This document shows, in pieces, positions 30,083 to 64,000 of a stretch of 64,000 nt of DNA (its first letter is position 1; every line of letters starts with the position of its first letter). The notes under the pieces are model-generated. The model saw nothing but the letters and a program-made list of their open reading frames with translations, searched no databases and was not told the DNA's origin. The stretch is from an uncultured Ruficoccus sp. (GTDB taxonomy: Bacteria; Verrucomicrobiota; Verrucomicrobiia; Opitutales; Cerasicoccaceae), in NCBI GenBank assembly GCA_965140785.1, contig OZ223491.1, positions 29,796 through 93,795 of the forward strand, given 5' to 3'. A program made the position numbers and the translations under genes.

Positions 30083-30090
30083 ATAATTTG
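30078..30090. other. Bacterial/eukaryotic sequence junction
   Basis: Abrupt switch from GC-rich to AT-rich DNA; the genes on both sides are truncated here. Confidence 0.92.
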
Positions 30091-32219
30091 AACTATCAAA
30101 CCTCAAATTAGCAGGATAATGCCTTGACATGAATTGTTCATTATGCCTTACAAGTTCGTGTCTATATTTTGGATAAAGTTTATTGAATTTTGTTTCACTA
30201 ATACTAGAAATATTTCAAATTGTACGTGTTAGATAATCTTCAAAATTAAATTTTATTCCAAAGAGGGAAATTATTGTTTATAATGAGTTGCTTTGCTCTA
30301 AGGTTAAGTCAATTTTAAAAAGATAAATTTACTTGATTTTTTTTTTGTAGATAAAATTTTTTAAGGAATTTAATCATTAGCAAGTTTGTTTGAGTTTTAG
30401 TTAGCCAAAAAGGTAGTAGGCTAATTGTTTTAAAATGTAAATACAGAGCAGTGCATTCCGAATAATTTTAAAGCTGAATTATTTTCTCCAAATTTTTTCT
30501 CTTCCTCCATGCTTTAATAATTTTCATCATTTTTTTCATTTTCTTCAGAGTTTACTAAATTAAAATAAATTATCATTAAATTTAATATCATATTTTAACT
30601 TTCAAATTCATCAATATCTTTATCAATAGAAGATCAATTATCACCATTCTCATCCTCCACTATCTCCCGACCAGAAAATAATAATTCAGCTGCTGCATTC
30701 ACACTTCCTGAGCCTTTAAGAATAATTTTATACTTCAGCTATTCTGGACCTGGAAACCCTTTTTTATTTTTATAATCCTTTGGCAATTAATATATCTTCT
30801 CTTTAAATATTTCTTTACAAATCTCAGCCATTCTTTATTACTATGGTATTGAGCAATGTATTTCAAGTGAAAGAATTATGGGATAAGGATTTTGCTTAAA
30901 CCCTTCATCATTAATTGTTTGGATTACATCTTGGAATAATATTTTTGAAGTCATTGTATGTCCGTGATAGATTATTGGTTCACCGTCAGGTCCGTCCCAA
31001 CAATCCAATTCCACACAACGACAGCCTTTATGGAAAGCCTAATTTATTAGTATTATAATTTTAATTATTTGTTAATTTTAACAAGAGTATATGCTTTTAA
31101 TGAGGATTCGCCAATAAGTTAATCACCGAGTAAGTATGTATTATGAGAACTGTTGATATAATAGTGTGATAATGGTCGATTCATTTTCTTTAATAATATT
31201 ATTAATTACTAAACAATATTAAACTTAATAAATTATTTTTTTTTGTGGGTCAAAAATGCTAGACTAAGTGTCATCAAAAATCCAACTACAGAACATATGA
31301 AAAGTGATATTATTATGATTTTATCGAGATTTCTCTTAATATTCATCGATTCACTTTACAATAGCTTCAAGAGTTACTTCTTAATCTTTTTACTCTGTTT
31401 ACAGAAATATAAGAAATTCCTCAGGAGTCATGAATGGAGCTTCAGCTTTCTTTTCTAAATCTTCATTTTCTGCACTTTTGCAGTATTATTAATAAAGAGG
31501 GGCTAATTCCTTTTTGAATAACAATGATGAAAGAATCTATTAAAATTCATCAAATTCTATGCTATTATTGTTATTTTAATCGAATTCCTTGAAGAGCTTA
31601 CTGACGTATTTTTTGTTTGCTTTTATGTGCATTGATCGAAGCAAACTTAAAGTTTCTTTGAAATCTAGGGAATTTGAATGATCTTTATCTGCTATTGTGA
31701 ATAATTTTTTCATTAAATAATTATTAACAAGCATTTGCCCTCTTACAAATAGAATTAATTTAACAAAAAATACTTGCTTTCTATAGACCCTGTAATAAAA
31801 TGCTAAATTCCTTATCAATATAAATCTCTTGCTTCTTGGTTTTCAAAGTAAAATGTTACTTCTTTATTTGAATTTAGTTTAATATTTAAGGTTTAGTCTT
31901 AAGAAAATTCCTTTTTCATTTTATACATAGGGTGATCATTTAATTCTTTTATTTGGTCTAAGGTAATTCTTGAAACTCCAAATGGCTTGCACTAAGAAAA
32001 TCATTATAAGATCATTATATTTTATGATAAAAGGAAAAGTTAAATTGCATGTTTCTTCTAAAAAAAGTATTTTTTGGATTTTAAAAAAACTTTTCCAGCC
32101 TTACAAAATTTTTCAATTTTTTAATGGTTTTTATTTCCATATTTGATCAAATTTATAGCTGATTCAAGATAGCAACTAGGAAACCCTTTCATTCCTAATA
32201 AATCAGATTTTTATTACAT
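30083..32219 (-). CDS. Phosphoinositide-specific phospholipase C (PH-EF-X-Y), intron-containing, 3'-truncated at the junction
   Basis: With TAR=Q and TGA=W: PH domain (DLYWQGIQ), EF hands, [50 protein letters not shown] and [15 protein letters not shown]. Confidence 0.92.
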
Positions 32220-32332
32220 ATTCAGATAATTTAATATGCAAATATAATTATAAGTTAAATTTGCTTTTAAAAAAAAAAACTCATATAATTTATTTTTATT
32301 TTAATTATTTTATTTTTATTAACAAATTTTAA

Positions 32333-33556
32333 TCAAAGTTTGCAAACTCCAATAGGTAAATCTAATCCATAATCATCTGTCTTAGAATTAATGTATTCTA
32401 CTTTTAATTAGGCTGCTTTCACATTTGTCTCAAATTTGCCTTTTATCATATCATTAACTACTTATTGTGAGAATTTTCCTCCTTCTTTAAGAATCTTCTT
32501 TAAATTTTCATAAAATTCTTAAGTAAAGATGCATTTTTCTGCATTCTATGGATATAATAAATTGATTTAAAAATGTTTTTTACATTCCAATTTCCTTGGT
32601 TAGAATTGACGGTATCTATAATGATGGCATCAAACTTTTCTCCTTTTTCTGCTTAGTCTTTAGCATATTTAGCTCCATTTTCATAGACCAATTCAAGTTT
32701 TTATTCTTTAATTGCCTATAAATATAATAAAAAATAAAAAAATAAACTTTTTCAATTTCAGCAGCATTTGCAAAGAATTTGACAACAACATCAATAATTT
32801 CTGAATCAATATCACAAATAACAATTTTTTTAATCTTCGAAAACTGGCGAAGAAGATAAGTAGCAATAGAAGTATTAGCCCCTCCAATAATCAGAACTCT
32901 TTCCAACTCCTTCTGTTCATCAATAATTTCCCTTGTCATATCCTTATTATAATCATTATCAATCTTTCCTATCAATTTAATCTAATCATCAATTGTTAGG
33001 ATCCTCCCAAGGAATTCATTATCAAAAACACGAATTTCATGTTCTTTTGATTTTTAACGATGCACAATCTTCATATTCTTATAAATAGCTGATGTAAATT
33101 CATTTGAATTTAATAAAAATTTGTTATCGCCTCCCTTTTACTAATAAAAAGATGTTTTGCATTACAAATTGCCAAAAAATTTAGCAAAATGGGTGTAAGC
33201 TGAATCAAGCACTTCTTATTTGCTTTACTCAAAAATATTCAAATCAAAAGAAACAAAATTGTTTTGCTTTGGGAAGCACTAACAGTTCAAATACCCATCT
33301 ATAAAAACAAATTAGCAATAAAATCTTAAAAATAATAAGAACCAGCTAAAGCAAATGTAAGGGTATACTCTGTATTGGCATCACCAAGCTCTATGACCTC
33401 AGCCACTTCGGTATTATTAGTTTTAAAGAAGTCTGCTATTTCTTTTTTGATGAGCTCTTTATTTTTGAGATCGATGATAGTGACATTCTCGTATTCCAGG
33501 AGGAGTTGAAATCCTTCTAAAGGGATTTTGTTTAATTTTACAGCTTAGGTTTCCAT
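32333..33556 (-). CDS. AdoMetDC-like/spermidine-synthase-like fusion with degenerate motifs, intron-containing
   Basis: N-terminal AdoMetDC-like fold, then KSKEHEIRVFDNEFLGRILTIDD, RVLIIGGA, CDIDSEIID and FDAIIID; ends ...GVCKL-TGA. Confidence 0.75.
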
Positions 33557-33838
33557 ATTTTTTTGATTTTTAAGTTTAAGAGAAAATTTTCCAATAATTT
33601 TTATGCAAAAACAAAATTATGCAAAAAAGATATTAATAAATCTTAATAAAAATTTATTTTAAGAATTTTCATTTTTATAAAATAATTGGTCATCAATGCT
33701 ATTATAATATAATTGCTTTAAATTTGTTATTAAGAACAATTTAAATAATACTATTTTTTATTACAGAATTAATACATAAAATTGATATTAATTCTTTTTC
33801 TTAAATACGATAAAAAAATATAATTGTTTAAACATTTA

Positions 33839-36800
33839 TCATATGTCTGCTCCACAAAACATTGTTAATAAAGCTTATTCTTAGTTGCCCTTAAAATAAT
33901 TAAATTCTTCAATAATAAAAACATTAATTATTGTTTCCTTTATTTAATCCATAGGAATTTCTTCATCTTAGTCTTTTTCCATTACAGAAAAAATTAATCT
34001 TGTAAAATAATGGCATAATTCATCAAGAAAATCATCGCCTTCGTATTGAATTTTTATGTATTTGGATAAACAAATTTTAGATCTTAAAAACAAAAAATAG
34101 TTAGAATATATGTTTTACAAAGTAAAAATTTCAAAATAAGATAAATTTCCATTTTTATCTTCATCTGCAATCTATTAAAAAATATGATTATTAATTTATT
34201 GGCCTTTATGAATAAATTTATTTTATCTTTTAAAGTTTTCGCTTGAATACTGCTCATTAATTGTAAAAATTATGCCCAATTTAAAAATTCTGTATAGAAA
34301 AAAATAGATTATAAAAACTATTATTGTCTAACCAAAATTTTAGGTCTCTACACTTTTAAAAATTTTTTCTTATAATTCTTCACTTTATAAAAATATATGA
34401 TAAATTCCATTTCTAAATGTATCGTAATCAACTCCTGTATTTGTTTCTTTAGTTAAAAATTAACATTATATTTATTTACCATAATTTTTATGTCTTTAAG
34501 ATGTAACTTCATGTAAGCTTTTATAAAGAGTATAAATTTGATGTAAATCTCTTCGTTCAAAATGAGTAATATTTAGGATTTTAGGAATATTATGAAGGAA
34601 AATTTCTTTATTATTTTTACGAATTTCTTGAATAATCTTTTTTTTTGATTAAATTTTTCTTTTTAATATATAGATATTAGCTGAAAAATTTACTGGCGAT
34701 TTAATTTGACAAAATCAAGTTTTTCTTTAATTTCTGATTCGTTTCATTTAATTTATGCATCTTCAAAATGATATTTTTCATCTTTTTCATCTTATTTTTA
34801 CTGAACTTTTTTATTTTCAATTCCATAATTATTATAATTCTTAATAATTTTTATCTTATTTGCTTTATAATCAAATTATTAATTCTTTTTTACTATTGAT
34901 TATTTTCACTTTTCAATTAAATATTCTAATCTTTCGGTCATTTAATCAATTTCTAAGATCAAATATATTTAAAATTATATTTAACCTTCATCTGTTAATC
35001 CAGCTCTTGAAGCTATGTATTATAATTCAGGATCATTACTTTCAGCATCGCTTTCCATTGATATTTCATATTTTTATAGCATTGCATTATCATTTGAATA
35101 ATATTTTTCAGCTGCTTTATAAATATGCTAAAATTTTGATTCAACCAAAGGCTAATCTAAATTTTGTTCATTTAAGTAATCCTCTTCATTTGTGAAAAGT
35201 AATTTTTTATTTTATATTATTTTTTTAGGAATATTTTTTAATTGCATTACCTTTGAAATTTAAAAATGTTTATCTGTTAGATTATCTTTTATTATTTAAT
35301 TCATTTCCTCTAATTATTCGCTTGATAATTCATCATTTTTTTAGAGTAATTATAATATTTCATTAATTAATTAAGAATTTTCATTTTCAAAACTTTCCTA
35401 AGCCAATTCATTATTTTAAATTCTTTAGCTTAAATACCTAACTGGCGCTTCTAATTATTTTAAAATATTTTAAATTCGAAGATTATGAAGCTTTGTTATT
35501 CCAAGATGATTCACTCCAATAAATAAAGGAGAATTGCTCACAATAATAGTTTGATCATTTGGAGTTAATTCAGAAAGATAATTGATTATTTAACCATTTT
35601 TTTTGAATATGTAAATTTGTTTTTTTATTAAATTTAAGGATTATTTAATTTATTCTACAAATTTTAGAAATTCTTAAGTTTATTAATCTAAACTTTTCTG
35701 AAAATATTCTTTTTACTTTTTGAATTTATGAATTTAAATAAATTTTACCAGTGGAATTGTTAAGTAGTTATATTTTAAATTATATTTTGTAACAAAATCA
35801 TTGAGATTATGATTTTAAATAACAAGGATAAGTTTTCTTTTTTGAGTTTTAATATTTTTAGCTAAAGTATTGTATGAACCCTAATTTGGATTTATAAGTT
35901 TTTTTTCTATTTTTCTTCGATCTGAACTCTGCAAATTATTTTTATGCTAATTAATTAATAAGTTTTTTATAGTAAAAAATTATTTCGTTTTTTTCTTATA
36001 AAAAAATTTAAAAAAATACAAAAAAACTTGCAGTTTATTTTTCTTTTTTTGCATCAGCATTTATTTCATTTTACTTAATTATAATTTATTTTTTAAATTC
36101 TGCGGTGCTTGCCTTTGTCTATTTAAATTAAAATAACTAATTTCTCTCTTATGAAAGAGTTATTTTTGTATTTTATGATTATTCTGATCTTGGCGTTGGA
36201 AATACAAAATCTTTATGTTTTTCAATATCCGGTAATGTAAATTATTTATTATTTACAAAAAAGTTTTATTATGATTAAACTTTCTTCTAAAAAATATTTT
36301 GCTAAGAATTTTAAAAATACATTTTATGAAAGTTTCCTTTAATAAAAATTTTAAATGGATCCCTTAAAATTAAGTTTTAAATTAGATGATTACATAGCTT
36401 TAGTTTAAATTAATTAATAATGCTTATTCTAAATTTTTATATTACTTCCATTTGATTGAATTGCTTATTAAAAAGCAGATCCCATTGAATTTTATTTATG
36501 AGAATGAGTTGAAGTATTTGATCTGCACGTTAAGAATTAAAATTTCTACTTATTATTTCCTAAATGGTTTCCTTCCATTTCTTAAAGTTAATTTTCAAAA
36601 ATGAAGGACTTTTCATTTTATTTATAATAAACTATATTTTTTAATTATTTAGACTTGCAAAAGGACTGCTACTAGTATTTGATACTGCTCGGTGAGTTGC
36701 AGCTTTCGAGGGGCTTTTTGAAAACAATAGTATATTTGAAATTGTATTATGGTTGGCTTGGAAAGGAGAAGAAGAAAATCATTAGTTTGTTTTGTTTTAT

Positions 36801-36901
36801 TTTCAATGCTAAGGAGCTAGTGTTGGACTTGTTTTATACATTTAGGTTCTTTAAATATCTTCTTTTGTTTCTATTTCGCTTTTATTGATAATTCGCATCA
36901 T
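33839..36901 (-). CDS. Large low-complexity protein with C-terminal NCS/calcineurin-B-like EF-hand domain (5' end uncertain)
   Basis: GVDYDTFRNGI...FLNWAQFL...KINLFIKIADEDKNGNLS...MFCGADI-TGA; several short introns. Confidence 0.65.
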
Positions 36902-37066
36902 AAAAAGAAATTTTATCAAGTTATAAAAATAATATTTTTTTTTTTTTTTCAAGAGTTTTTCAATAATTTAATGAAAATGGGACAATAGTTATTATTAATT
37001 TTTAAGCCACTTTAATTGTAATTAAATGAAATTTTATTTAATATAAAATTTAAAATAATTTTAAAA

Positions 37067-38215
37067 ATGAAAATGAAAATAAATGAATCAGAGTTAAGTA
37101 GTGAAGAGCGCATATAACTAGCCTTAACTCTAAAAGAAAAAGGAAATTAAAAAATGAAAGCTTCTCAAATAGAAGAAGCTGGTAAACTTTATTTTGAAGC
37201 CTTATCTTATCTTTCTACTGAATGTGGATAAAAGAATGTTGAAATGAAAAAATCTTTATTACTTAATTTATCTTTGGTTTGCCTCAAAGAAAAAGACTAT
37301 GATTCTTGTATATAACATGCGTCAGCAGTTTTAGTTTTAGAGCCTAAAAGTATTAAAGCAAGATTTCGAAAGGGCTGTGCTTTAATGGAAATTGGTGAAC
37401 TTTAGCAAGCCAAGGAAGAATTAGAATTTGCTTAAAAATTAGAGCCAAAATCAACTGAAATTGCAACATCCTTATAAAAACTAGCTATTCGAGAAAAGGA
37501 ATCAAAAATTAAGGAAAAGAAACTTTGGTGGGGAGTATTTGCAGAGGAAGTAAAAGAATAAGAAAAGGAAATCAAAGAATATAATTAATAAAAATAGTCG
37601 CTAAAGTAAATCTTTTTTCAAATAAAATTATAAGTTTAGATTGTAAAAATGATCCCTAACCTCAAACTATTATTTCAGAAAATTGCTAATAAAATAATTA
37701 GGAAAATATTACTGTATTTTTGGATATTTCCATTGAAGGGAAGGATTCTTAAAGAATTGAAATATAATTATTCAATAAAGAAGTGCCTAAGACTTGTGAA
37801 AATTTTCTAAGTTTATGTGCTGGTGAAAATTAGCTTTCTACCTATAAAAATCTATCATTTCATAGATTAGTAAAAAATTTTATGATTTAAGGAGGTAAAA
37901 TGGAAAATAGTTACGAATTTGAGGATGAAAATTTCTCAATAAAGCATTCGGAAAGAGGAATGGTTGCAATGGCAAATAATGGACCCAATACTAATGGGAC
38001 TTAATTTTATATTATTTTCAGAAAAACAGGTTTTTATTTTAATTAATTTTATTGTTATAGCTTGGCTTGATGGGAAACATGTTGTCTTTGGAAAAGTAAT
38101 TTCTGGTCTAGATTTCTTAACAATTTTGGAAAATATAGAAGTGTTGGAAAATGATGTACCAAGCAAAGAAATAAAAATAGTTAATTGTGGTTAAATAAAA
38201 AAATAAGAAGATTGA
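37067..38215 (+). CDS. TPR-domain + cyclophilin-type PPIase (introns 37606-37634 and 38030-38060)
   Basis: Three TPRs (LKEKGN...KARFRKG), then [43 protein letters not shown] and [12 protein letters not shown]; ends TGA. Confidence 0.92.
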
Positions 38216-38290: not shown

Positions 38291-41200
38291 TCAAAGAAGA
38301 TTATAATTGATATTTTCTTTCCATAAATGCTTTTAAATTAAAACCATTTAAGATGGTGATAATTCTTATAATTTCTTAGAAGAATCCTTGATAATCAATA
38401 ATTTTCCATCAGTTTCCAATTCTAAAGGATTTTCCATTAAGTTTTTATTATTAGCGTTGAGTTCCGACCATTTTGCTTCAAATAAAAGAAATCTATTCAA
38501 AAATAATTTTATAAATTGTTTAACCTAGTAAAATTATTTAATTTAGGAATTATTGTTCCACTAATTTCAAACTTCAAATCAAGAAGCTTTTAAATTTATT
38601 AAGCTAATTGCTCATACGTAATTAAATTTGATACAATTAATTCATAAAACTCTCCTAAAAATTAAGTCTCTGGATCATAAAGTGAAAATTGTATTAAATG
38701 TTCTGAATAAGTCATTTATTTATAAAAAGATATTTCATTTATAGACTGCTAGGTATATTCAAAGGCAAGAGCCTTTCGATCATGAACTTGTTATGCTTTC
38801 AAGGGAACATCCTTATAAACTCTTTACAATTTATTTCCTATTTTTTCACGAAGTCTTATGTTATTTATTGAGAATTCAGTTGATTTGATCAAAGAAGAAA
38901 GTTAAGGAAAATATTATTGTATGATTTCCTTTGGCGTGAAATTATTGCTGATAATTTCTGAACCCAGAAAGGTGAAATTATTTAAGAATTTATCATATTC
39001 AAGTATTTCTTCAAAATTATCTCCTGTGTAATTTAAAAAATCCTTACGTGATGAATAATAAAAATGAATATAAATTTCATCTTTTTATTATTTTTATATT
39101 GAGCCAAAATCCAAATAAACACTTATTTAATTATCAACAGGCTATTGAGATTCCAATCTAATATAAAAAAAATTAATAAAAAATTCATAGAATACTTTAA
39201 ATTATTATTAGAAATTTTTACTCCAGCTTTTCCATTCATAATAAAGCCAAACGATGTAGATTCTAATTCTTCATCAAAATTTGTTTATATGTATTATTAA
39301 AGTTCTAGAAATGTTTTTGTTTTAGAAAACAATATTGTAATTGATTCAGGAGCAGAGTATTCATCAATTTACATTGTTAGATTTAGAATTTAAACTTTAA
39401 AGAGATTATTTAATTCATTAAAGTATTTTATCCATTAAAGATTTTCATTTTACTTTTCTATAAAAAACTCTTTAGAGGGTAAATATTCTATTTATTTTGA
39501 TAAATTTTCTTCTGTTGGTAATAATTATCTGCCAACCCAATTGGATGACACTTCTTCCTGCTATTTAATTATAATTGCTAAAGAGTTATTATTAATTCCT
39601 GTTTATGCACATATTAAATCTCTTAAATCTGAATAAGATTTCAATTTATTGATTTTAATTTTTTCTGAATTTATATCAAAAGAATTTAAAGTAATTTTAT
39701 ATCTAAAAATTTTGATTTCAGTTTCTTCAATATTATAACTTTCAAAGTCTTTTTAAATATTTTTTATTTCTAAATATAATTTCGTAAACCATCCAAGTTA
39801 CAACTCCCCTAAAGTTTTATCTTAATTTTAATCCTCTAAGACATAATGTTTTTTCTCATTATATCTCAAATTATAGAACCTCAACCTACAATTTTCAATT
39901 GACTCTTTAATATCAAATTCTAAAATAGTTTGTTTCAGCAATGAAGAATAGCTTTAGCTTTTAGTTGCACTAATAATTTTCATTTAATCATTATAAAAAA
40001 TTTATAATTAAATTTAAGAAAGTTCTAATTATTTCTTAACTTATTCAGCAAACTCTTCTTCCTAAATAGTTGCCAGCAGATTCTCAGGAATGGCAAAAAG
40101 TTTATCCAATGAAATTTAAGTTTTAATAAATTATTCATACTAATTTACTTATTTTATTGCCAATTTTGTATAAAATAATAATTACGCATTACAACTTTTT
40201 CTATTCCCACCAAACGATTTCTCTTTAATTTCATTTATATCAACCAATTCTACTTTTTTATCAAAAAACTTATACCATCTATGATTTTCTAAACTTTATA
40301 TATAGGCAAAATAATGGCCACTATTAATCCCTCCTGCATGGATTATAATAGATGTTAATTCATATAATTCAGCTTCAGGGTCCTCAGTAATAAGAGATTG
40401 GAACCTATTGATTTATTCTTATTAGAATTAAGAGTAATTTTCTTCAAGTAATTTTATTTTTTAATCTTAATTTAAGGCCTTGAGTTATTAGTTAGCGAAT
40501 GTTTATTCAAGAGAATTAAGTTTATTTTACTCCTCTTCTTCTTATTTTTATTTTTCAATGATTTTCGTTTTTTCTAAAGGATTAATAGATTTAAATGCAT
40601 TGAGATTTATTAAAAAAGGAAAACTCACGTAATCATTTAATTTTTATTTTTTCATTGTTTAAAAATTTAGAATAAATCTGTTAAAGCAAAAAGTGCAAAA
40701 CTCAGGAAATCTATGAATTAAAATGCCTTTTTTTGCTTCTTATTTACCTTGGCATTGACTGCAAAAATATTTATTTGAATCCTTTAGTTCTTCAATCTCA
40801 GTCTATTCTATTAAGCATTTTTCAAGATTATTATTGCAAATTTTACGATATATATCCTTTACTGTAAGAAATTGTGAAGTGAAATTTTCAATATTTTTTG
40901 ATTTGTATTAGCAATTTTCACAAATTATATAATTTTCTGAGACACCTTGAAATAAATCAGACATCAATAGATTTAAATCAGTTGATTTTAATTCTTATTC
41001 TAAACTATTCACTATACCACAAAAAAATTCACCAGCATCCTATTACTCTAATATTTCATAATCATATTTCTCTAAACTTAAAATATATTAAAAATTTAAC
41101 ATTTATATATACCTTGCCGCAAACTCATTGGTTGAAATAACTCCTCCCTTTGATTTCAATATCATTTTGGCAAACAATTTTTAAAGGGAATAAAGCAAAA

Positions 41201-41484
41201 ATTAGTTTGAATTGTCAATTTGTAGATGTAAAATATTATTTGTAAATTATAAATTCATGAATAGAGTTTAAAGAATACAATTCATATAACAATTATTTTT
41301 TTTGTTTGTTAGGCCTATTGTTATTACATTACTATAGTTATAAAAAAATGTTGCCTGTGTATGGGTTATTTTCAAAGGTTTCTGAAATCTAGTTATAAAT
41401 CATTTCTGATTATTTTAGGTCTTTTTGAAATTCAAGCAATAGATTTTTTGGAGGCAGTGGTGGTGGTGGGGGTGGATTTGACAT
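38291..41484 (-). CDS. Ubiquitin-specific protease (USP47/USP7-like), intron-containing, one apparent +1 indel near 41345
   Basis: Cys box GLTNKKNNCYMNCILQ, QQDAGEF, and His box HAGGINSGHYFAYI...WYKFFD...NAYYLFY; ends TGA. Confidence 0.88.
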
Positions 41485-41603: not shown

Positions 41604-42147
41604 ATGAAAAAAATAGAAGAGAAAAAAAAAAATGATAGTTCAAATGGTAAAAGTTTCTCTTTAACATTTTTACTAGGTTGGCTATACGGGCTATTTGGAG
41701 TTGCTTTAGGTTTCAACAATAAAAACTTATTTTATAAATTAAGGTGCTGCTGGAGCTTATGTTGCTTCAAAAATTTTAAATGATAAAGAGTTTTATAAAT
41801 TATTTTGAATTATTACTTTTTGTTGAAGCACTGAAAATACTGTAACTTAAAAAACTCCTGCAACATTTTCAGTTGAAAACGAGAATTTGCTTTGTCCAAT
41901 CTCGTAATGTAATAAAATTTAAAATATAATTCTTAAAAAACATTTTTATTCAGGTCTGATGACTGACCCGATGACAATAAAGCAATGCGGACATACATTT
42001 GACAGGAATTCAATACTATAATGGCTGGATAAATAGCAGTTTTGTCCTCAATGTAGAACACATGCTACAATTGAGGACCTTGTTTAAAATTTTACAGTAA
42101 AAAGCTTAGTTTAGGATGCAATAAATTCTAAGGAAATTAAAAATTGA
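41604..42147 (+). CDS. Small U-box E3 ligase with N-terminal membrane anchor (3 introns)
   Basis: LLCPISQCLMTDPM...CGHTFDRNSILQWL...CPQCR...LVQNFTVKSLV; ends TGA. Confidence 0.82.
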
Positions 42148-42973: not shown

Positions 42974-45900
42974 ATGAAAATATCCATTCTAATTTTTCTT
43001 TTTCTTTTCACAACACTTAAAAGTGAAAAAGTAAATAACATTTCTGTTGGAGATTATTTGGAATTGAGCATTGATCCCTCGAACAAAGAAGGAGCATTGT
43101 ATTATCAACTAATCTTACAAGAATCAGATCTTAATGATGAAGCAGAAATAGGAGTATTCGTTCGTCCTTTAGATTATCGAAGTGACCCTGATATTTATAT
43201 TTCAACAAAGGAGCAATATCCTACAAGAGATATTAATGAAATCAAGTTTATTTAATTAAAAATTTTTAAATTAATAAATAAAGATGTGAAGTCTATGGTT
43301 TTGATGTTTGCTATTTGCCTAAAGATTAACTTATAGTGAATTAAACTTTTTATATTGCAGTCAACTGTGAAACTACTTGTAAATTTTCCCTGCAAATTGA
43401 TTAAAACAAACCCGATCTCATCCCATTCAACTCCACAAAACTCCTAAAACTAGAAAAAAATAGCGAACACCTCTGCCATTTAAATATCCCTCCTCTCGAA
43501 AATCTAACTACTTTCAAAGTACTTTTCAAATTCTTAGGCCTTAGCTCCCATGAGCCAACAGTCTGAATCTCCCAGGGAAATAAGCCAATTAACACAAACT
43601 GGAATTAAGATTCATTACCAGTGCTTTATGCGCCATTTGGGAATATTTTCCTAGCAAGTAAGGAACAATTTCGTGAAGGGTTTTGCACTGATTGTAATTA
43701 TACGATTTCTATAGAAGTTGAGGATGAAACATTGGTGAAAATAATTAGTGTTCCTGGAGAGTTAGTATAAAATATTAGTCTTTGGGAAAATATTGATGAT
43801 GGTGTTATTATTAATTAAACTTAGTATTATTAGCTAAGTACAACAAAATCTGTATATGATGAATAATACAAAATAACCTGGAACGATGAATAAAAAATAG
43901 AAGATACCTTAGTGTTTGAACTTAAAGTCTACTAAGGAAATCCTAATCTTTATATCACTTGTGATGAGATTCCTCCAAACTTACATGCTTCTACCTGGCA
44001 AGCAACTTCCAATGTAAGTGAGGCTATTATTCTGGGAAAGGATGATTTTGCTTAATTAGCCCCAGGGTCTTGTAAGAATATAATTATAGCAATTAATGGG
44101 GATGAATGGAGTGCGTATAGGTTTTAAGTTAAGAAAGTGGGAAAAACTATGGTTAATACTATTAGGACTGGCGAATTAGAAGTTGGAATGCTTGAAAATG
44201 GACATATTTAAAATTTTATTTTAACAGTTAATAAATAAGAACTTTAGAGAACTACAGATGTGATAATTGATTTGATAGCTCTAAGAGGAAATCCTGATTT
44301 ATATATTAAAGGGTGCAAACAGATTCATAATTGTACAATTACAGAAACTGATATTGAATAAGCCGATAAATTAGCTCATGAGGAATTATAATTTTTTGTA
44401 TTTTCTAGAAATATTGATAGTAAAAAACTATAATTTGTTTTTATTTTATGGTTATATTAAAAGGCGAACATTACGAATTTATGCTCAAAAGAGAAAATTG
44501 CCTTTCCGATGATATTGTCCCAATGTGCTTTTATGTGATTGGAGTATTTGCTAATAATTTGAATTCATTATCCCCAGATACAAAATTTAATTTAATGGTT
44601 TCTTTTAACAACGAACTACTCTGGCTCTAAGAAAACATACCTATGAAAATTACAATGCAAACTAATAGTTCAAAATACTTTAGATTTCAAGTAATGGATG
44701 ATAAGGAAATAAGCGAAATTAGTTTTCAAATGACTTTTCTTTATGGAGAAGCTGAAATTGTTGCGAGTAGATCAATCGAAAGACCTAATTTAAATATGTT
44801 TGATAAAATTGGAATATTTTCTGTGAATTTGGTTAATTTTAAGAAGGAACATGAGGGAAATTTAAAGGGGAATTATTATATTGGAGTTTATTCAATTGCG
44901 GAATGTGCGTTTACAATGAATACATTTTTGATAAAAAATAAATCTAATAGGATGAATCCTTTTATTAATTTAGAAAATGGAATACCTTAAAGAATAACAG
45001 GAAATATGAATGCACCATTCACTTTCTTTATATTTTCAGTCCCTGATTTAGTTAAGCCAATAGAATTAAAATTAACAGTTGAAAAAGGTAGAAATATTAA
45101 ATTTTATTTAAATTAAATAGGAAAGAATCTTTTTAATATTTATGCTTTAAATCTAAAATCAACTGAGGATGATGTCATTGTACCAACAAAAGTATTTTTT
45201 TAAAAGTATTAATTAATCTTCAGATATTTAACTCTTATGAATCCTAATTAAATGCATTGATTATTGAACCAACTCAATACTCTGAAAAATACTTCACAAT
45301 TTCTGTAGTATATGAAGGTAACTCAGATTATTAATTTGCCATCGAATACCACACCTTTGATAAAGTTATTTCCTTACAAAAAATAATAAATTATTTTTAA
45401 AGTTGCTTACCTTATTCCCAAATGTAATTTAGCAGAACACTATAATCCCTTCCCATCCATTAATCTACAAATTTACCCTCACCAAAGAAGATATTTTTGC
45501 ATATATTAGTTTGTCCTCAGAGCTCTCAGGCGCATAACTTTAGTTTTCCTAGGATATAGACTTTAAGGATTCCTCTGCAATTGAACATAAGGAAGGTCAT
45601 CATTCTTCCTCCAAGATTATTATGTTGGGTGGAAATGCTATTTCTTAATATTGTAACTTTTCTTCATCGGATTAATGCTAACTTTATGCCTCTGTTTCGA
45701 CCTAAAACATATTCAATACTGAAGTTGTTCTTTTATTAGAGAAGTTTTAAGAGATTTAAAGTATTGAAGAAATGAAATATCCAGCTGTTGGATTAATTGA
45801 AGGAATGATGCTTGAATTAGCTTTAGAAGAAAGCTAAGTAAGGCATTTTTATTTGTTAGCCAAAAACAGCGAAATCAATTATATAATTCAGGTTGTCACC

Positions 45901-49898: not shown

Positions 49899-52800
49899 TC
49901 AATTCTTGGATTCATTAAAATTAATTGAACCATAATGTTCTTTTAAGTCAAATAAAATAAAAATATATTATAACTTAATTATTCCGTCATTTTTTTTTCA
50001 ATCACACGTTCTTATAATAAAATCAAATAATTATATAATTACCTAATTTTTTAGCAATTTCTGTTTCCATGGATGCCCCAATCTTTTATGAATCACCATA
50101 TAAGCCAGTTTAGCCTAATTCATTTTTTGATAACAATTATTTTAATCTAAAAATTTAATAAATTACAATTTTATTTACGATTCTTTGATGATGAATATAT
50201 CTTGATCTAATAATAATAATAATATAATATACAATATACTCTAAATTTTAAGTTTTTTATTTAATGAATCCAACTTTCCTTTTAATAATTCTCCTTCTGG
50301 ACTAAGTTCAGTTAATTAATTTTACAAGATTCTGAAGATAAAAAGATATTTATTTCCATATTTCTTTTCAAATTAGTTAAAAACTTTTGAAGGCAAATCT
50401 GAATCAATAGATGCTATAAGTCTAATTCTTTCATATAGAAATGCTATATCTTTTTTCTAAGTCTATTGCACATACGAGTCATTCACAAAAGCAATTAATA
50501 AATTTAACATAATTATCATAAGCAACAAAGTACAAATAAAGAAAATTAGCCAAATAAAAAAATTGGAATCAGTAATTTCTTCATTTGTAGCTTCTTCAAA
50601 TTAATCAAAATCTCCTAGTAAAACTTTGTAAAGTATTTTCGTCATTGTAAATAAAGAAGTAGTTTCAATTTCAGGCTTCCATCGATTTTACATTTAATTA
50701 ACTAAAAAAAGAGTTAAATGAAATTAAAAAAAAATTAACAAGTCAAAGTAAAAGCAAATACCATCCATAATAAAGTGATAAAAAAGTATTTCATATCATC
50801 AAAAACAAATATTAGCATCCTTGTAATGAATGACATCTGCTAAATTGCTCTAAAATAAGTAAGAATTTTGACAGAGCAAAGTAAAACTGATAATGAAGAA
50901 AACAATCTTAAAGTAAAACTATTTTCTGCTTATTAAACGAGATCATAAATTAAATAAACAACTGTAATTAGAATAAATGCACAATCAAACCAATTCCATC
51001 TTTCTCTTAAATAATATCTGATTTAACCTTTCATTTATCCAAGTTCTTTCCAAAGAAAATTAATTAAAAAAATCAGTAAAATGCTATCAAGTATGTTAAG
51101 TAAAACTAATTTCGTCCCCTCAATTTTATCTCCGTAATGAAAAACAAAAATTTAAACCATCAGTCCTGCAATAAAAAGTCCAAGCCTAATAAATTCTGAC
51201 CAATACTGTGAGCTTGCATAATTATCCCATTTTAATTTAGCAACTTCCCAAACAACTTTACTCTCAAAAATCTTATTATTAACATCTAAATTTGCCAATT
51301 GCCTGAAAAAATTGCCTTATGGCCCTATCAGCCCTGGTATAGTTACAACATTCCATTAACCTATTTATTTATCCCCTTCAATATACTGAAATGACTATTC
51401 TTTAAAATCTTCATAGAGAGAATCTGAAAGCTTGGACATTGGTATTCCTGATGTTTCAGTTATTAGCATTGGAGCTCTTACTTCTAAAGTTTCAAAGAAT
51501 TGTATTGCATTTGCTGAGAGGTTATTTCCTGATAAAGTAAAAAAATTCTGTAATTATGTAGTTGAATTTATTCCAGTAAACGGTTAAGAAAGATTTTTTT
51601 GGTTTGCCATGCAAAATTTAAATAGCTATTCTTTACAAGAGCTAAATTTACCGTAATGAGAAATATCAAAAATTGAAAATCCAAATTAATCAACTTCAAA
51701 GGATAGCTTTATTGGTGGATTAATAACTTAAATTAAATGTAAATAGGCTATAAGCAATTGTTCATCATCTAAATATAACAGAAAATGCAATATTGGGACT
51801 TTTTTATTATATCCAATATAATATTAATAAAATCCAGTCGCAATTTTTTTAATTCATTAATAAAATTATTATTTGTTTGGATCATTTCTTAATTTTTCAA
51901 AAAAACTTTATTTTTTTGTTTTTAATTTTTCTTATTCTTAATTATCAATTTATTTTGATTGTTTCTATTTTTATTCCCAAGCCATAGATCTTTAAAGTTC
52001 TTTTAAAATTTCGATAAATTATGATCCATATTTTGGAAGTGCATTAATATTTGGTATATTAAATAATTCATTGAATCTATTTAAAATTATAAATACAAAA
52101 ATAAAATAACAATTTTAAATTTTTCTTTTTTTATTCATTAGCGAGTAATTTTCATTTAAATTCAATTAAACTATTTGCAGTCACTGTTTGAAATTAATCC
52201 TCTTCATATTTTTATGATTTATAAAAACTATTTTCCTATACAAATTCCCAAATTTTATCCATTTTCCTAATTTCAATAATAATTTTAAAATTTACCTGTT
52301 TCCAGTATTTTTGACCCCATAAATAATATCCTTATTAGCAAATCCAATTTTCATTGAGCCATAATCTAATGGTTCATTTATTATAGGTAATAAAGTATAT
52401 TTTGGCTTATTTCATTACTCCTTGCCAGTACGAAAGATTTATTGCCTAAAAATAGGATAAAATAAAATTAGTGAAAACTTATCAAGAAAAATAGCTACAA
52501 GAAATTCAGCAGTTTAAGATAAGTAAATTTCTTTAATTTTCAGAGAGGATTAGTCAATTTGCAATAATTATTAATGATTTTCTACTCTCCACAACTTAAT
52601 AATTTATGAAGTTTGAGTATTAGCTAAACTACCAAGAAAATTGTCGTCTATAGAAAAGACTAAGAATTAAATGAAATGTTAATAATCAGCAAATAGCTTA
52701 AAATCTTAATTTTTAAAATTATAAATTCTTATTTATTAATCTTATCCTCCACTGGCTAGTAATTAATTATTATTTGAAAAGCATAAAGCATCAATTCGAT

Positions 52801-55053: not shown

Positions 55054-55282
55054 AAATTGTCTTCAAATTGTCTTCAAATTGTCTTCAAATTGTCTTCAAA
55101 TTGTCTTCAAATTGTCTTCAAATTGTCTTCAAATTGTCTTTAAATTGTCTTCAAATTGTCTTCAAATTGTCTTCAAATTGTCTTCAAATTGTCTTCAAAT
55201 TGTCTTCAAATTGTATTCAAATTGTATTCAAATAATATTCAAATTGTATTAAATTGTATTCAAATTGCATTCAAATTGTATT
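55054..55282 (+). repeat. 11-bp tandem minisatellite (AAATTGTCTTC)n
   Basis: 14 near-perfect units to ~55207, then ~6-7 AAATTGTATTC-type decayed units. Confidence 0.95.
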
Positions 55283-55396: not shown

Positions 55397-57353
55397 ATGC
55401 TCTTTTATACAAACTAAAAAAAGCCTAATTAATTAAACAGAAGTGATTAAAGCTATAATAGACATTATTAACAAGATGAAATCGATTTAGAATTTCATTA
55501 AAAAACAAAATATGAAAAAAATTAAGTTTACAAAAATATAATATTATTTTTTAAATTTTTAACTGATTAGTGGTCAGCACGATATGAGTCTTCTTTACGT
55601 ATAAAAATTGAATCATTACTTAAATCAAAAAATGATTTAGAAATAGAAATTAGCAATTTACAAACAATTATTAAAGAGGCAATTTTATTTATTGAGTTGT
55701 AATTTATTGTTTTAGCAAAAAAGTAAAATTCTTCGATTAGCAAATAGTCTTAAAAAATAAACATTTGAAGTTGAAAATAAAGATAAAGATATTAAATCTC
55801 TCACTTTCAAATTGTACAAGTAATTTATTTTAACAAATTAGATAAATTTAAATATTTCTAGTTTAAAATAAAATAAAAATACAAAAGAATTTTTAGAATA
55901 AGATACGTAAGAAGTTCAGCAGGATGGTGATAAAGTATTACAATAATAATAATAAATTGCAATGCTTTAAGAATAATTAATTATCTTAGAAAAAACTATT
56001 TATTCATTACAAAATTAAAGAGTAATTAAAAATATTTGTAATTTATTCTCTAAAAGGATAGTTAAGCAAACTTTGAAATTCCGAATTAATTTTATGCTTA
56101 AACATTGTAAAATTATGATTAAGAAATTAATGAGCTGAAAGAAAATAAATTTGAATCTGATTAACTGATAACAAAATTAAAATTAGAAGTAATATCATAT
56201 AATTCTGTTAATATTTAAATAGTTGCAAAACTCATAATTTGTAAATAATTAATAAAACAAAGTGAAAAATTCATTATAAGAGTAATTGCAGTAAAATTAT
56301 GAAATTATTGAGAATATGATTAGTTAGAATTTGCATCTTCAAAATGTTAAATTATTAAATAATATAATTTTCTTAAGGTTTTTAATCAATTGAATTTAGA
56401 AAAATAAGAATTTTCAGAAATTATAGAAGTATAAAATAATTTTATTGATAATTTAGTAAAAATGTTATTTAATTTATTTTTTTTAAGACTCAATTAAAAT
56501 AATAAAATCAATAATTTTAAGAATAATTTTGATCAAATAAAAAAGTTTTAAAATTAATTAATTATTATTTTTAAAAAAGAAATTAGAAATAATTGAATAA
56601 AGAACACTTAGTCCTATACATAATTATTAAATTTATTAGAAGGATTCTTTTCCTGAAGTATAAAAATAGCTTTCTTTTTAGTTTTATTTTTCTTAAAAAA
56701 ATTATTATTAAAAAAGAAATAATTAATAATGTTTGCAAAATAAATTTTGTATGATGTGTAATCAATATAAATCTGATTATTTTAAAGCTTTATAAGAGAA
56801 AGATAATTTTAAACGAATGTATGAATAACTAAAAAAAAGTTAAATTATATCAACAAAATAAATAACAGAAAAGTCTCCTAAAAACAGTTATGAAAATTAA
56901 GAACTAATTTTGGAAAAATAATAATTAAAAGTTATATTTTATACTGTGAAATAGTTAATAAACTTAGAAAACAATTAAATAGTTATTAAAGAAAAATGAG
57001 TTAGCGGAATATGAAAAATAATAAATTTAATTATAAATATCAAAAAAATAAGAATAAATTGAAAAATTAATAGAATAGAAAAGATTACTAGAAGCAACAT
57101 TAGGAAATCAAATTATTACACTTCAGTTTAAATATTTTTTCTTAACTGAAATATATTTATCTATAGATCAGCAAATAATTGTTACAAAGGAGAAGCAAAA
57201 GAGCTAATATAGAAAACAGAGTTAATCTAAGAGGAAAATGAAAGCTTAAAAAATATAATTAAAAGACTTGAATTTAAAATTGATAAATTTGAATAATTTT
57301 CACCAAGAATTTCAGAAATATAATCAAAAAAAACAATGCATATTAAAAAATGA
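55397..57353 (+). CDS. Coiled-coil protein (many introns)
   Basis: Q/E/K/L-rich heptad-like exons; ends ...HIKK-TGA-TGA. Confidence 0.6.
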
Positions 57354-57391
57354 TGATTAGATTATATATTTTAAATTAAAATTTGAATTTT

Positions 57392-59680
57392 TCAAACAAA
57401 TTTTAGCATACTTTCTAAAAATTATTTCAATTTTAATTTAATTAAAGTTATTATTCCCATTATAAGTGCATCTAAATTCATTAATTAATGATAATGAAGA
57501 ATAGTTTTGCATTTTTCTATGGCTTTTGTTAAATTTTATTCAGTTCCAAGACCATATTCATGCATATAACTTTCTGCTAGAAGTTATTCTGGGATAATAT
57601 ATTCTACTATCATTCCTTTCTTATAAAAGCTTGTTAACTGATAAAACATATAGGCTTATGTATAATTTGAAGGTAACTATTTACTCCCATAAAAAAGTAA
57701 ATTTCCAAGTTAATAACCCCCTATTTAATTATTGTGAAGTAATTCTTTATATGAGTATAATATCTATAATATTAATAGTAAAAATTTTTAAAATAACTTC
57801 ACAAATTTTTGTATCATTATTAAAACATGATTAATTTAATTCTAATTTGGTTTGTATTAAAAATTAAATATTTTCATAGCCTTAGCTTAGTCCAATAAAT
57901 GCTGCCATTTAATTATATAGATAGCTTCCGAAGAAATCCTCGTTTTAATAAGCTTTGAGTCCTTTTTCTAAAAAACCAAAAGAATTTGCTTTTTCCATTA
58001 TTAATTTTCAATAATTTTCTGCCTAGTATTCTAAAGCAATAAATTAAAAGTAATTAAGATTTACAATCAATCAATTCTTCAGAATCTTCGCTGTTCACAG
58101 TAAATTACATAAGGTTATACATTGAGGATAATTCGTTTTTATTAGCAGCTAATTTCATATAATATATTCCTAAATCTTGGGATTAAGGAATAATATCTTT
58201 ATAGCCATCATAATATAATGCTCCAAGATTAGCCATTGCCTCAACATTTCCAAATTTTACAGATTATTAAAAATAATAAAGAACTTTACTAGGATCTTCT
58301 TTTTAAAGTTCTAAATTATATAAATATAAATAAGCTAATGCATTATATCCAGCAGCTGCAAAAGATGAATTAGAATTAATTGTTTTATTAAGAAGATCAA
58401 TTGCTTTAGTATAATTTTTTTTCATTCCTATTCCTTATAAATTCATAATGCCTAAAGCATGCTAAGCATATGGCTCATTTTATTAAGCTGCCTAATTAAA
58501 ATAATTTATTGCTTCGTTATAATTTTATTCAATGCCTTATGCAGGATCTCTATTAGAAAAAACGATTAAATTAAATTCATAAAAAATTATAATAATATTT
58601 ACCCTTTGAAATACAGTTCCCCTAAGTCTAGTTAAGATTAGGCATTACCATTTTCAGCACTGTGCTTTAATATTTAAACAGAATCTTTATCGATTTTTTT
58701 TTCCTTTTATTAAATTGGATTCTTATCATACTTTTTAAGAGGAGGTAAAGGGGTATTTTAAATTCCTTAACTTTCCAAATTATTAATTGAATTTCTAGCT
58801 GCAACTTAAAATTTCAATGAAAAAAACAAAAATTACTTAAGCCAATTTGAAGTGCTTGTTTTCATTCATGGCAATCTTTATAAAAAAATGGAGTTTGCAA
58901 AAAATTTTCAATTTATAATTAATTCATAGAAATATTATTAAAATCATTAAGAAATAAAGACATTCATTAGTGCAATTCTAATAACTAACTTTCTGAATTG
59001 CATAAAATATTTGAAGCAAAATAAATAGCAGATGCTAAAGCACTCTCTCTATTAAGACCAACACTTAAAATATTGAACCAAATGTCTTATGGAACATTAA
59101 AGATTATTTAATCTTAGATTTTTTAAATTAGCAAGGACTAATAATAAAAAAAGAATAAATAGGCAGGTGCATCTTTATGACCTAATTTATGGGCTTCTAT
59201 TAAATAATAATAAGCTTTAACAAAATTTCTTCCATTTTAATCAATTTTGTAGGTTTCATCAAGAGTTTAGAGTTTTTCCCACTTTTTTAATTATTTCTCA
59301 TTCATTTCAAATTCTAAATCATCACAATTACTTATTATTTAATTTGTGTATTCCTAATAATTTAATTCAGCAGTCGAAACGCTTGGATTTGGCATTTCTT
59401 TATCAATATAAGTTAAAGTTCCAAATAAATAATGATTTGCTAATTTCATTGCCGCATGAGAGTTTTACTCTAGTACATAAGATCTTTATAAACAATACTA
59501 AAAATCGGTAAAATTTCTTATTTCTGAATGTTCTAGAAATTTAATATAATTTCATAACATGCTTCTTGGCTCAAATTAATGTATTTAGTTTTCATATAAT
59601 AGTAGCTAAGGAATTTTGAATGAATAAGATGCTTTTATAAAAAGAAGCAATGAAATCATAAAGTGATATTAAATTGGCAT
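57392..59680 (-). CDS. SEL1-repeat protein, SEL1L/Hrd3-like
   Basis: Signal peptide; AQHALGIMNLQGIGMKKNYTKA, AMANLGALYYDG and YMHEYGLGTEQNLTKA; ends ...LKFV-TGA. Confidence 0.8.
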
Positions 59681-59844
59681 TTGACGTGTAAATTTTTTAA
59701 ATAATTTGAACTTAAAAAATATAAAAATCTTATTATATCACAACAAGTTGAACTTTTTTTTTTAATAAACAATAAATAAAAGAATTTTCACTTATTAAGC
59801 AAATTATATAATGAACAATTAGACTGGAAAAGTCATCTAAATTT

Positions 59845-61379: not shown

Positions 61380-61685
61380 TATAAATTAATATATTATTTT
61401 TTTTTTAATTGAATTTAAGTAAAAATTACCAAAAAAAAGCATAATTATTGTGATAATTTTAATATTTATTATTATTTTTTAATTTTTTAAAAAAAAACCC
61501 AAAATTATACTAATTGTTTTTAAATTATTCAATCAAAATTAAAATTTTGAAATTTCATATTTCATTCCTTTGAGTTCAAATTCATTAAATAAAATCTCTA
61601 ATAGTTTTTAAAATTTGGATTTTATTTGTTATTGGTTTTTTAAAGTTTAACTGAAGAATAATAAAATTTCAAATTATTAGAAAAA

Positions 61686-63458
61686 ATGAAAAAAAATTGG
61701 AGTACAATTAATAAAAAGCAAAATATAACCAATCTTTCTGAAATAATGAAATCAACACAAACTTAAACGAGAAAAAAATTACTTAATGATATTTTTTCTG
61801 TGAAGAGAAAGCTCTTTTTTGATTAATAATAATCAACGACAGGAAATTTTTAAATGGAAGAAGAAGAAAAGGAATTAACTAATTAAAGCTTTATTGTATA
61901 GCCTTTATACACAGAAACAATTTATAATAATAATTATCAACCAATATCAAAAAATTATTTATAACTTGAAAGTATTGATAATACAAGCCCCATGTTTAGT
62001 AATTTTAATTTTTTGTAATTATGTTAAATTTAAATTTTAGTTTAAAATAATTAGCCTGATTATAAAGAATTTAAAACATTTAATGTTCCGAATGTTGAAA
62101 AAACTTTACCAAAACAACGAAAATTACAGGATCCTAATTTATTATATAGGTAAGATCGAAATACTGATTAACAATAATCTAAAAATTAAATACAATAATA
62201 ATAATATGAAGCTTTACCTTTAAATTATCATTAACTCCATGATAATCTTCGCAAGATTGGCAATTATATCTACGATAAAAGTAAATTACTAGGAAAGGGT
62301 TCCTTTAGCAAAGTTTATAAAGGATATTCTATTTAATTTCCTCGTTTTCCTTTAGCAATTAAATGCACATCACGTGATAATTATAATCTTCAAGAAATAT
62401 AAGTTTTGAAGATAGTTTCATCAAAAAATGTTATAATGTTGAAGGATGCAGTATAACATGGAACTAAGAATTATATGATGATGGATTATTGCGATGGTGG
62501 TGACTTAGGATAAAAGAAATTCTAGAATCTTGCAATTGTCTAAGTTTACAATATTTTCAGATAAGTATTAAACGGAATGAAAGAACTGTAAGGACATGGA
62601 ATCATTCATCGAGATTTAAAGCTTGAAAACCTTTTATTAAAAGAAAATTGTGTAAAAATCTCAGATTTTGGATTCGCTAAACAATTAAAGTTGCTAATAA
62701 TATCTATAAAGGATCATATTTATTTTTTATAAAGATCACTTGCAGCTGAAAGTGTAAAATGCGGGACTCCAGCAACAATGGCCCCAGAAATACTCTTTAA
62801 TCATAACCATAAAGCTATCTACACAACAAAATGCGATATTTGGTCATTAGGGATTATTTTGCATTAGCTTGCTTATGGGTGTCATCCATTTGATTATAAT
62901 TCTTAAAGAATCCTGTAAAATATAAGAATTAAGTTATTTTTTGTTATAAATATTTTAAATATGAAAATGTGTAGAATTCCAAATAATAAGTAAGATAAAT
63001 ATATTGAAGATTTTTTGGGTAAGTCGTTGGCTTTTAACCCTAAATAACGAGTAATATAAGCAATATTATAATTTTTTTTTTTTTTTTAGATGAATTGAAA
63101 TGAAGTATTTTCTCACTAGATTAACTATTTGCCTCCAGAAAATTAACATTCTCATAATAAAACCAGAAAGTTTATGAATTAATAATATTAAAAAGTAAAT
63201 ACAATTGTTGAAGAGAGTCATATAAGATCAAGAATGGAATAATAACCATTTAATAAATAATAAATAATTTCAGAAAAACCTTAAAAATGTGTGCCAATTT
63301 AATTATACTAATCAATTAATTAAGTAGTTAATGAGAAATAAGATAAAAATTAAATGTAATAAATAGCTTTGTGTTAAATTGGTAAGTATGAAAGAATAAT
63401 TTTTTTTATAATTATTCTTATTATCATTTTATTAATAACTAAAGCCAATTTAAAATGA
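61686..63458 (+). CDS. Ser/Thr protein kinase (ULK/CAMK-like) with hydrophobic C-terminal tail
   Basis: [34 protein letters not shown] and DIWSLG; ends [23 protein letters not shown]. Confidence 0.88.
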
Positions 63459-63538
63459 AAATAACTTTATTATTTTTTATTTATATTTATTTATATTTTA
63501 TATTTAAAAAATTTAAAATTTTTATTTAAACTAAAAAT

Positions 63539-64000
63539 ATGTTTACATAATTAAAAGCAATTCTTGTGAAAAATTTTCTAAATTTGATTCGAAATAAAGG
63601 CGATCTACTTCGAGAAATTTTTGTTCCCTTCATAGTAGTAATTTCCAGAATCTTTGCCTTAAAATGTTTAAATACAAAAACAAACTTTAACTAAAATTTT
63701 AGATAATTTATGGAGTGTAGTCGTAATGCTTCCATTGATATTGCCTTAAATTGTGAATGGATTAGTTCGTAAACTCATTGTTGATTTTGTCTATGAAAAA
63801 AGCTAAAAATTCAAAGAAACTCAAAAAGTATTATTATTTGAACTACTAATAACGCCTTTAAAAAGATAATGGGACTTTCCCAATCAATTTATGTTCTAGG
63901 CTGAATATTATATGCTTATATTAAATCAATAGTAATAATAGCAATTTTTATTCTGATGGTGGTTATTGCCTAGGCTTAGATAGTAGATTTATAATAAATT
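63539..64000 (+). CDS. ABC transporter subfamily A, 5' part (runs off the window)
   Basis: MFTQLKAILVKNFLNLIRNKGDLLREIFVPFIV, the typical ABCA N-terminus, followed by TM segments. Confidence 0.7.

Follow-up and report, generated by a model that had tools for sequence, protein, structure and literature searches.

How are the three standard stop codons read in a block of DNA that is filed as bacterial and yields eukaryotic proteins when its reading frames are followed through all of them? The question is raised by a window of 64,000 nucleotides (nt), positions 29,796 to 93,795 of the forward strand of contig OZ223491.1 in assembly GCA_965140785.1 of an uncultured Ruficoccus sp.; coordinates below are those of the window unless another contig is named. 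The guanine-plus-cytosine (GC) content is 0.51-0.66 over positions 1-30000, a half that holds long ordinary bacterial open reading frames, and 0.18-0.29 over positions 30001-64000. Six-frame translations carrying an X at every TAA, TAG and TGA were scanned with Pfam, and eukaryotic domains surfaced in the AT-rich block only with the stops read through.

A first-pass annotation, made from the letters of the sequence, had read UAA and UAG (UAR; TAR in DNA) in this block as Gln, internal UGA as Trp, and UGA as the stop. The log-odds test and the gene-end evidence described here support that reading, and the genes of the block very probably use the karyorelict-type ambiguous code (NCBI table 27) in ciliate-type nuclear DNA that was misjoined to a bacterial contig. 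The attributes of ciliate nuclear DNA found in the block are stop codon reassignment, tiny GT..AG introns, dense AT-rich genes and best matches from ciliates. The finding adds one more case to a kind of code already in print, encountered here as contaminating ciliate DNA in a bacterial genome record.

Meanings of TAA, TAG and TGA inside genes

The sequence of the block shows a sense meaning for all three codons and TGA also at the ends of genes. For each codon and amino acid, column log-odds were summed over the homologue columns of three genes, encoding a protein with two WD40 propellers, a PI-PLC (PLC below) and a USP47-like deubiquitinase (USP below). As a control, the standard meaning was recovered for 51 of the 52 sense codons having at least 5 columns; the remaining codon, GTT, was assigned to Ile narrowly above Val. 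TAA was assigned to Gln (+14.3 over 101 columns, with Lys next at -17.0), as was TAG (+3.7 over 16 columns, with Asn next at -2.3), and TGA was assigned to Trp (+6.2 over 6 columns, followed by Tyr at -1.7 and Leu at -5.1). The evidence for TAG is weaker than that for TAA, and one TAG falls on a Phe column.

The same scores bear on the proposal that internal TGA specifies Cys (as in Euplotes, table 10), Arg (a meaning claimed in certain spirotrichs) or selenocysteine. TGA has been reported as Arg in several spirotrichs and as Cys in another ciliate, according to PMC10089648, and at one TGA of the WD40 gene, at 54598, Arg is the second commonest residue (38 of 302 aligned cells, compared to 72 for Trp). 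Nonetheless, Cys and Arg both lie outside the top three of the log-odds ranking for TGA, and over all TGA cells of the WD40 gene Trp accounts for 63% and Arg for 4%. Contigs of 34 and 30 kb that carry many genes and no telomere repeats are, moreover, unlike spirotrich nanochromosomes. We therefore consider a meaning other than Trp for the internal TGA codons to be extremely unlikely.

The assignment of TAR to Gln was also examined column by column. The PLC region was aligned to the best 120 homologues listed among 648 that passed, and the 679-codon USP exon to the best 150 representatives listed among 8,913. In PLC, Gln occupied 119 of 119 aligned cells at TAA 31121, 109 of 120 at TAA 30840, 102 of 120 at TAG 30843, 88 of 112 at TAA 31392 and 75 of 111 at TAA 31227. 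In USP, the corresponding values were 140 of 142 at TAA 41270, 118 of 154 at TAA 41045 and 99 of 143 at TAA 41183. The claim of the first-pass annotation that TAR sits at invariant Gln positions was thus borne out.

Codon frequencies were counted in five single-frame exons fixed by their coordinates and comprising 2,878 codons. These held 148 TAA, 30 TAG, 36 CAA, 9 CAG, 8 TGA and 33 TGG codons, so that Gln would be written 178 times as UAA or UAG and 45 times as CAA or CAG, and TGA would make up 8 of 41 Trp codons. In-frame TGA was approximately six-fold rarer than background (log ratio -1.83), and TAA and TAG were not depleted (-0.08 and -0.22, respectively). A six-frame codon-usage segmentation, which had returned 69 TGAs among 10,736 codons, was rejected for its low scores and for segments that spanned introns and wrong frames.

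For TGA, the gene of the WD40 protein was compared to the best 120 homologues listed among 229, in 687 local alignments. Trp was found in 63% of the 1,371 cells aligned to its TGA codons, and likewise in 63% of the 5,462 cells aligned to its TGG codons. By position, Trp filled 400 of 452 cells at TGA 53359, 276 of 345 at 52849, 116 of 270 at 53866 (the rest being mostly gaps) and 72 of 302 at 54598; the fifth TGA, at 52414, had only 2 aligned cells. Of the 715 positions to which 100 or more cells align, only 28 have Trp as the top residue, and these include all four testable TGAs (hypergeometric P 1.9e-6) as well as 9 of the 15 TGGs. In PLC, Trp was the top residue at TGA 30217 (8 of 18) and at TGA 32003 (21 of 79). 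The claim of the first-pass annotation that internal TGAs occupy conserved Trp positions was thus confirmed, though not at every site: it holds for the four WD40 codons and these two PLC codons, and the other two TGAs of PLC, taken up below, lie on a Leu column and at an ambiguous site.

Could the in-frame TGAs instead be accidents in a genome with the ordinary ciliate code (table 6), in which TAA and TAG encode Gln and TGA is only a stop? They would then be decay mutations, assembly errors or the traces of missed introns. Many genes of the block have no internal TGA, among them the genes encoding the TPR-cyclophilin, the spermine synthase-like protein and the Sel1 protein, as well as the 679-codon USP exon, and the core of the channel gene has none or one. 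The statement that the genes read through only if all three stop codons are sense is therefore correct for the gene set as a whole, whereas several single genes require no sense TGA. In addition, TGG becomes TGA by a single G-to-A substitution, of a kind that AT-rich DNA favors, and TGAs arising in this way would also be located at Trp columns. Against this explanation, the 852-codon frame of the WD40 gene is open with five TGAs and no frameshift, and the repeat motifs are intact around each TGA; these TGAs are therefore neither introns nor a product of general decay. At least five genes contain in-frame TGAs, and homology of the USP protein continues beyond TGA 38499, as judged from one homologue. 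The DNA following internal TGAs also differs from that following terminal ones: the 40 nt after eight internal TGAs average 24.1% GC, retaining the coding level, compared to 9.6% after the convincing gene ends described in the next section. We regard the ordinary ciliate code as a highly improbable source of these observations.

Gene ends and termination

The first-pass annotation had listed 12 gene ends, all at TGA. Each of the 12 is indeed a TGA codon in the orientation given, and seven are convincing as ends (32333, 33839, 38215, 42147, 48891, 57353 and 57392), whereas five are uncertain. Around the seven convincing ends, the 150 nt preceding the TGA have a GC content of 24.2%, which drops to 9.6% over the 40 nt that follow. 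The gene for ribosomal protein P2, on a sister contig of the same assembly (C39), has a TGA 5 codons beyond its match to the Ribosomal_60s profile, which is complete to the final position (88 of 88). Homology of the cyclophilin ends at the C-termini of solved structures, 7 codons before its TGA at 38213-38215. The U-box match, at residues 250-308 of the translation, spans a TAA (residue 295) and a TAG (residue 304), with the TGA at 315; these codons precede the stop by 20 and 11 codons, and therefore TAA and TAG are still read as sense close to the gene end.

This last observation is of importance for the alternative that the block uses a Condylostoma-type code (table 28), in which all three codons serve as both sense and stop and the true end of some genes would be a TAA or TAG a short way upstream of the TGA. 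At six of the eight ends inspected, a TAA or TAG does lie within the final 20 codons, and the cyclophilin could end at a TAA directly following the conserved Cys-Gly where its solved homologues end. Karyorelicts themselves, in the account of bioRxiv 10.1101/2022.04.12.488043, may terminate translation at UAA in 1-10% of their transcripts. Reading through both TAR codons of the U-box gene is at odds with this alternative, as are the ribosomal P2 gene and the spermine synthase-like gene, which end at TGA with no TAA or TAG nearby. TGA was present at 12 of 12 traced ends, yet it is a minority stop in Condylostoma, where PMC10089648 gives 12 terminal TAA, 107 TAG and 30 TGA codons. A code of this type is, in our estimation, very unlikely for the block.

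How a sense UGA would be told from a terminal one is suggested by work on other organisms. Published analyses of Condylostoma magnum and Parduczia sp. describe translation of all 64 codons, with UGA as Trp supported by mass spectrometry and ribosome profiling, and propose that termination hinges on closeness to the poly(A) tail, 'stop' codons being depleted just before true stops (PMC4967479). In the block, UAA and UAG are ordinary Gln codons, and UGA is a minor Trp codon within coding sequence as well as the codon that ends genes. At an internal UGA, tRNA-Trp would outcompete the release factor eRF1, as modeled from the work on Condylostoma, Parduczia and Loxodes. At the last UGA, a poly(A) tail and its binding protein a few tens of bases away may help eRF1 to win. 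We infer such context dependence from these systems.

Two features of the gene ends can be set beside that model. The 50 codons that precede each of the seven convincing ends contain no TGA, where just about one in all would be expected at a usage of 0.28%. Between convergent stops there are 38, 59 and 75 nt, distances that are upper bounds for the space available to 3′ untranslated regions (3′ UTRs), and two of the three pairs include an uncertain end. The closest pair, formed by the coiled-coil gene stop at 57353 and the Sel1 gene stop at 57392, leaves two 3′ UTRs that are either tiny or overlapping.

Several observations weigh against the assignment of a karyorelict-type code to the block. 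Per column, the TAA score is low (+14.3 over 101 columns, compared to +19.0 over 20 columns for CAA). The TGA call draws on 6 columns alone, 4 of them from one repeat protein. In PLC, TGA 31353 falls on a Leu column (60 of 112), and the invariant Trp column of the PH domain falls on a Tyr, one codon ahead of TGA 31817; the PH-domain profile, built from 79 homologues, aligned at E 1.8e-7, and we treated the site as ambiguous. In USP, TAA 40184 falls on a Tyr column (114 of 128), TAA 40298 on a Lys column (120 of 152), TAA 41249 on a Glu column (105 of 142) and TAG 40805 on a Phe column (108 of 160). As for gene ends, 5 of the 12 are uncertain (38291, 48951, 49899, 59845 and 63458), and the end of the USP gene is ambiguous among 38499, 38397 and 38291. 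Finally, the searches proposed in the first-pass annotation for the decoding apparatus came back empty, as ARAGORN found no tRNA in the AT-rich DNA and no eRF1 domain was detected anywhere in the assembly.

The three TAA exceptions in USP would be substitutions in a divergent protein, since Tyr, Lys and Glu each have codons one base from TAA. The presence of TAA on such conserved columns may show how freely neighboring codons drift into TAA once it has become a sense codon.

Gene models, junction and assembly context

Approximately 14 genes with GT..AG introns were found across the 34 kb of the block, in agreement with the number proposed earlier (Table 1). Pfam matches comprised PI-PLC X and Y domains with EF-hands, a spermine synthase-like domain, TPR with cyclophilin, UCH/USP, U-box, two WD40 propellers, Sel1 repeats and a protein kinase; the large membrane protein, the TRP-like channel and the coiled-coil gene were recognized by eye. 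Conserved motifs are restored by removing putative GT..AG introns of 16, 29, 31 and 44 nt. In the spacer upstream of the WD40 gene, at 55054-55279, is a tandem array of an 11-nt unit in 20.6 copies with 94% matches.

Table 1. Features of the AT-rich part of the window, by window position.
Feature	Position	Strand	Remarks
AT-rich eukaryotic (ciliate-like) nuclear DNA block, about 14 genes	30083..64000	none	GC and Pfam domains
Chimeric junction of bacterial and ciliate-like DNA	30082..30083	none	composition switch seen in sequence
PI-PLC gene (PH-like, EF-hand, X, truncated Y)	30083..32111	-	Pfam and homologue alignment
PI-PLC putative introns	31224-31209 (16 nt), 31082-31039 (44 nt)	-	
PI-PLC in-frame TGAs	32003, 31817, 31353, 30217	-	
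Spermine/spermidine synthase-like gene, no internal TGA	32333..33250	-	stop TGA 32335-32333
TGA taken as end of an unnamed gene	33839..33841	-	GC 0.24 upstream, 0.12 downstream
TPR-cyclophilin gene, no internal TGA	37064..38215	+	stop TGA 38213-38215
TPR-cyclophilin putative introns	37606-37634 (29 nt), 38030-38060 (31 nt)	+	
USP47-like deubiquitinase gene	38291..41327	-	candidate end TGAs 38499, 38397, 38291
USP first exon, 679 codons, 54 TAA/TAG, zero TGA	39291-41327	-	
U-box gene end	41950..42147	+	stop TGA 42145-42147
Large multi-exon membrane protein gene, about 1,900 codons, three in-frame TGAs	43001..48891	+	stop TGA 48889-48891; model by eye
TRP-like cation channel gene	49899..51868	-	end uncertain, 50000 or 49899
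TRP-like channel core exon, none or one TGA	50711-51868	-	
WD40 two-propeller gene, one frame of 852 codons	52181..54739	-	closing TGA 52183-52181
WD40 in-frame TGAs	54598-54596, 53866-53864, 53359-53357, 52849-52847, 52414-52412	-	
Tandem TGA TGA ending the coiled-coil gene	57351..57356	+	
Sel1-repeat membrane protein gene	57392..58700	-	stop TGA 57394-57392
Protein kinase gene	62271..63458	+	in-frame TGAs 63096-63098 then 63456-63458, either a possible end
Kinase domain, no TGA	62271-63053	+	

The junction cuts the PI-PLC gene, and the Y-domain match (residues 3748-3806 of the translation) reaches the last residue at the join. The AT-rich DNA was absent from 40 relatives of the bacterial genome, of which three gave just 34-77 nt matches at E values of 1.8e-4 to 8.4e-4. 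We conclude that window positions 30083-64000 are foreign ciliate-type nuclear DNA, joined in error to the bacterial contig at assembly. Contig C39 has a second AT-rich ciliate-like tail, from approximately position 276,000 of that contig to its end at 305,856, in which the genes encode ribosomal protein P2, a calcineurin-like phosphatase, a mitochondrial-carrier-like protein and an HSP70-family protein. The C39 join falls within the calcineurin-like phosphatase gene. Each of the two chimeric contigs, that of the window (C20) and C39, thus carries a ciliate-like tail of 30-34 kb joined inside a eukaryotic gene. Neither AT-rich stretch showed telomere repeats, because each contig ends within a gene.

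In a species-representative bacterial genome, therefore, two contigs have ciliate DNA fused to them, amounting to at least 64 kb. Gene callers that apply the standard code shred such regions, which could pass for odd bacterial islands.

Other features of the assembly were noted in passing. The GC content of the bacterial part of the window sinks from approximately 60% to approximately 51% across positions 22000-30000, the final 8 kb before the junction, and C39 likewise dips to 33-48% immediately ahead of its junction. Contig C28 (13,084 bases, 28% GC) was considered as a further piece of the same ciliate DNA and rejected on account of its long standard-code bacterial open reading frames; these encode regulators, transporters and a dehydrogenase, and the contig has the appearance of another contaminant, unrelated to the first. 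Contigs C9, C41 and C44 have GC contents of 38-40%, apart from the bulk at 58-63%. ARAGORN also reported a tRNA-SeC(tca) at 7882-7979 of contig C15, a contig of 49% GC outside the AT-rich DNA.

The carrier and its relation to known codes

The code itself is already known: it was described in Parduczia in 2016 and, in 2022, extended to every karyorelict sampled; only its carrier may be new. The later survey reports UAR as Gln and UGA as Trp or stop in all karyorelicts available to it (bioRxiv 10.1101/2022.04.12.488043). The best protein matches of the block genes are just 25-39% identical, with none above 39% in the databases searched. Stentor coeruleus, Ichthyophthirius and Pseudocohnilembus are the named ciliates among these matches, and the cluster names of the 20 top matches comprise only Stentor coeruleus, a beetle, a jellyfish, a dinoflagellate and Gefionella. 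Identities of the USP matches (22-28%) are too low for a useful tree. Relatives that might exchange TGA for TGG or TAA for CAA were sought in one scan each of metagenome contigs (90 pattern matches) and genome contigs (46 pattern matches), and none was confirmed in either.

In the genome of the karyorelict Loxodes magnus, introns have a mode of 17 nt and 93% are at most 25 nt, and GC content is given as 33.5% in coding sequence and 18.6% in 3′ UTRs (bioRxiv 10.1101/2023.11.09.566212). Relative to these values, the putative introns of the block are longer (16-44 nt) and its exon GC content is lower (27%). The organism is probably not L. magnus, because it differs in both respects. Together with protein identities of at most 39% and with no relative in one metagenome and one genome scan, the same differences leave room for a ciliate outside the karyorelicts, an unsampled lineage with UGA as Trp and stop and UAR as Gln, although we consider such a carrier a rather doubtful prospect.

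If the organism did lie outside Karyorelictea, it would provide an independent case on how often ambiguous codes arise, implying either a further origin or a much wider spread than the karyorelicts, and would bring rare data at the genome level on introns, intergenic spacers and convergent gene ends. The questions of tRNA-Trp and eRF1 could in that case be tested directly on the sequencing runs containing this DNA; the six such runs listed, from three studies, include no RNA run. Whatever the carrier, genomic sequence is scarce for organisms with no dedicated stop codon: the literature drawn on here discusses the genomes of Loxodes magnus and Condylostoma magnum, with transcriptomes representing other karyorelicts. 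Relevant to the model of termination by poly(A) proximity, the 64 kb described here provide the arrangement of exons and introns, the sequence around stops, and genes packed very closely where they meet tail to tail.

Among known systems, the block most resembles table 27, as described for Parduczia sp., Loxodes magnus and the sampled karyorelict families. Shared with it are TAA and TAG as Gln, TGA as Trp inside genes and as the stop at their ends, and a sense UGA much rarer than UAR. The space for 3′ UTRs would likewise be very short and AT-rich, and the upper bounds of 38-75 nt between convergent stops fit the median 3′ UTR lengths of 31-43 nt given for karyorelict families in bioRxiv 10.1101/2022.04.12.488043.

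The remaining codes each share part of this pattern. With table 28, that of Condylostoma magnum, the block has in common that all 64 codons can be sense, with UAR as Gln and UGA as Trp, and termination in that organism is described as set by position near the transcript end (PMC4967479). Condylostoma, however, also stops at UAA and UAG, with TGA in the minority, whereas the ends in the block are all TGA and TAR is read 11-20 codons before an end. Tetrahymena, Paramecium and the many other ciliates with table 6 resemble the block in having TAA and TAG as Gln, a TGA stop, AT-rich genomes and small introns, but their code has no sense TGA, which in the block accounts for its share of Trp codons and stands on Trp columns. 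Blastocrithidia nonstop (table 31) also lacks a dedicated stop codon and uses UGA as Trp; in this trypanosomatid UAR is Glu and the stop is UAA, whereas in the block UAR is read as Gln and the stop as UGA.

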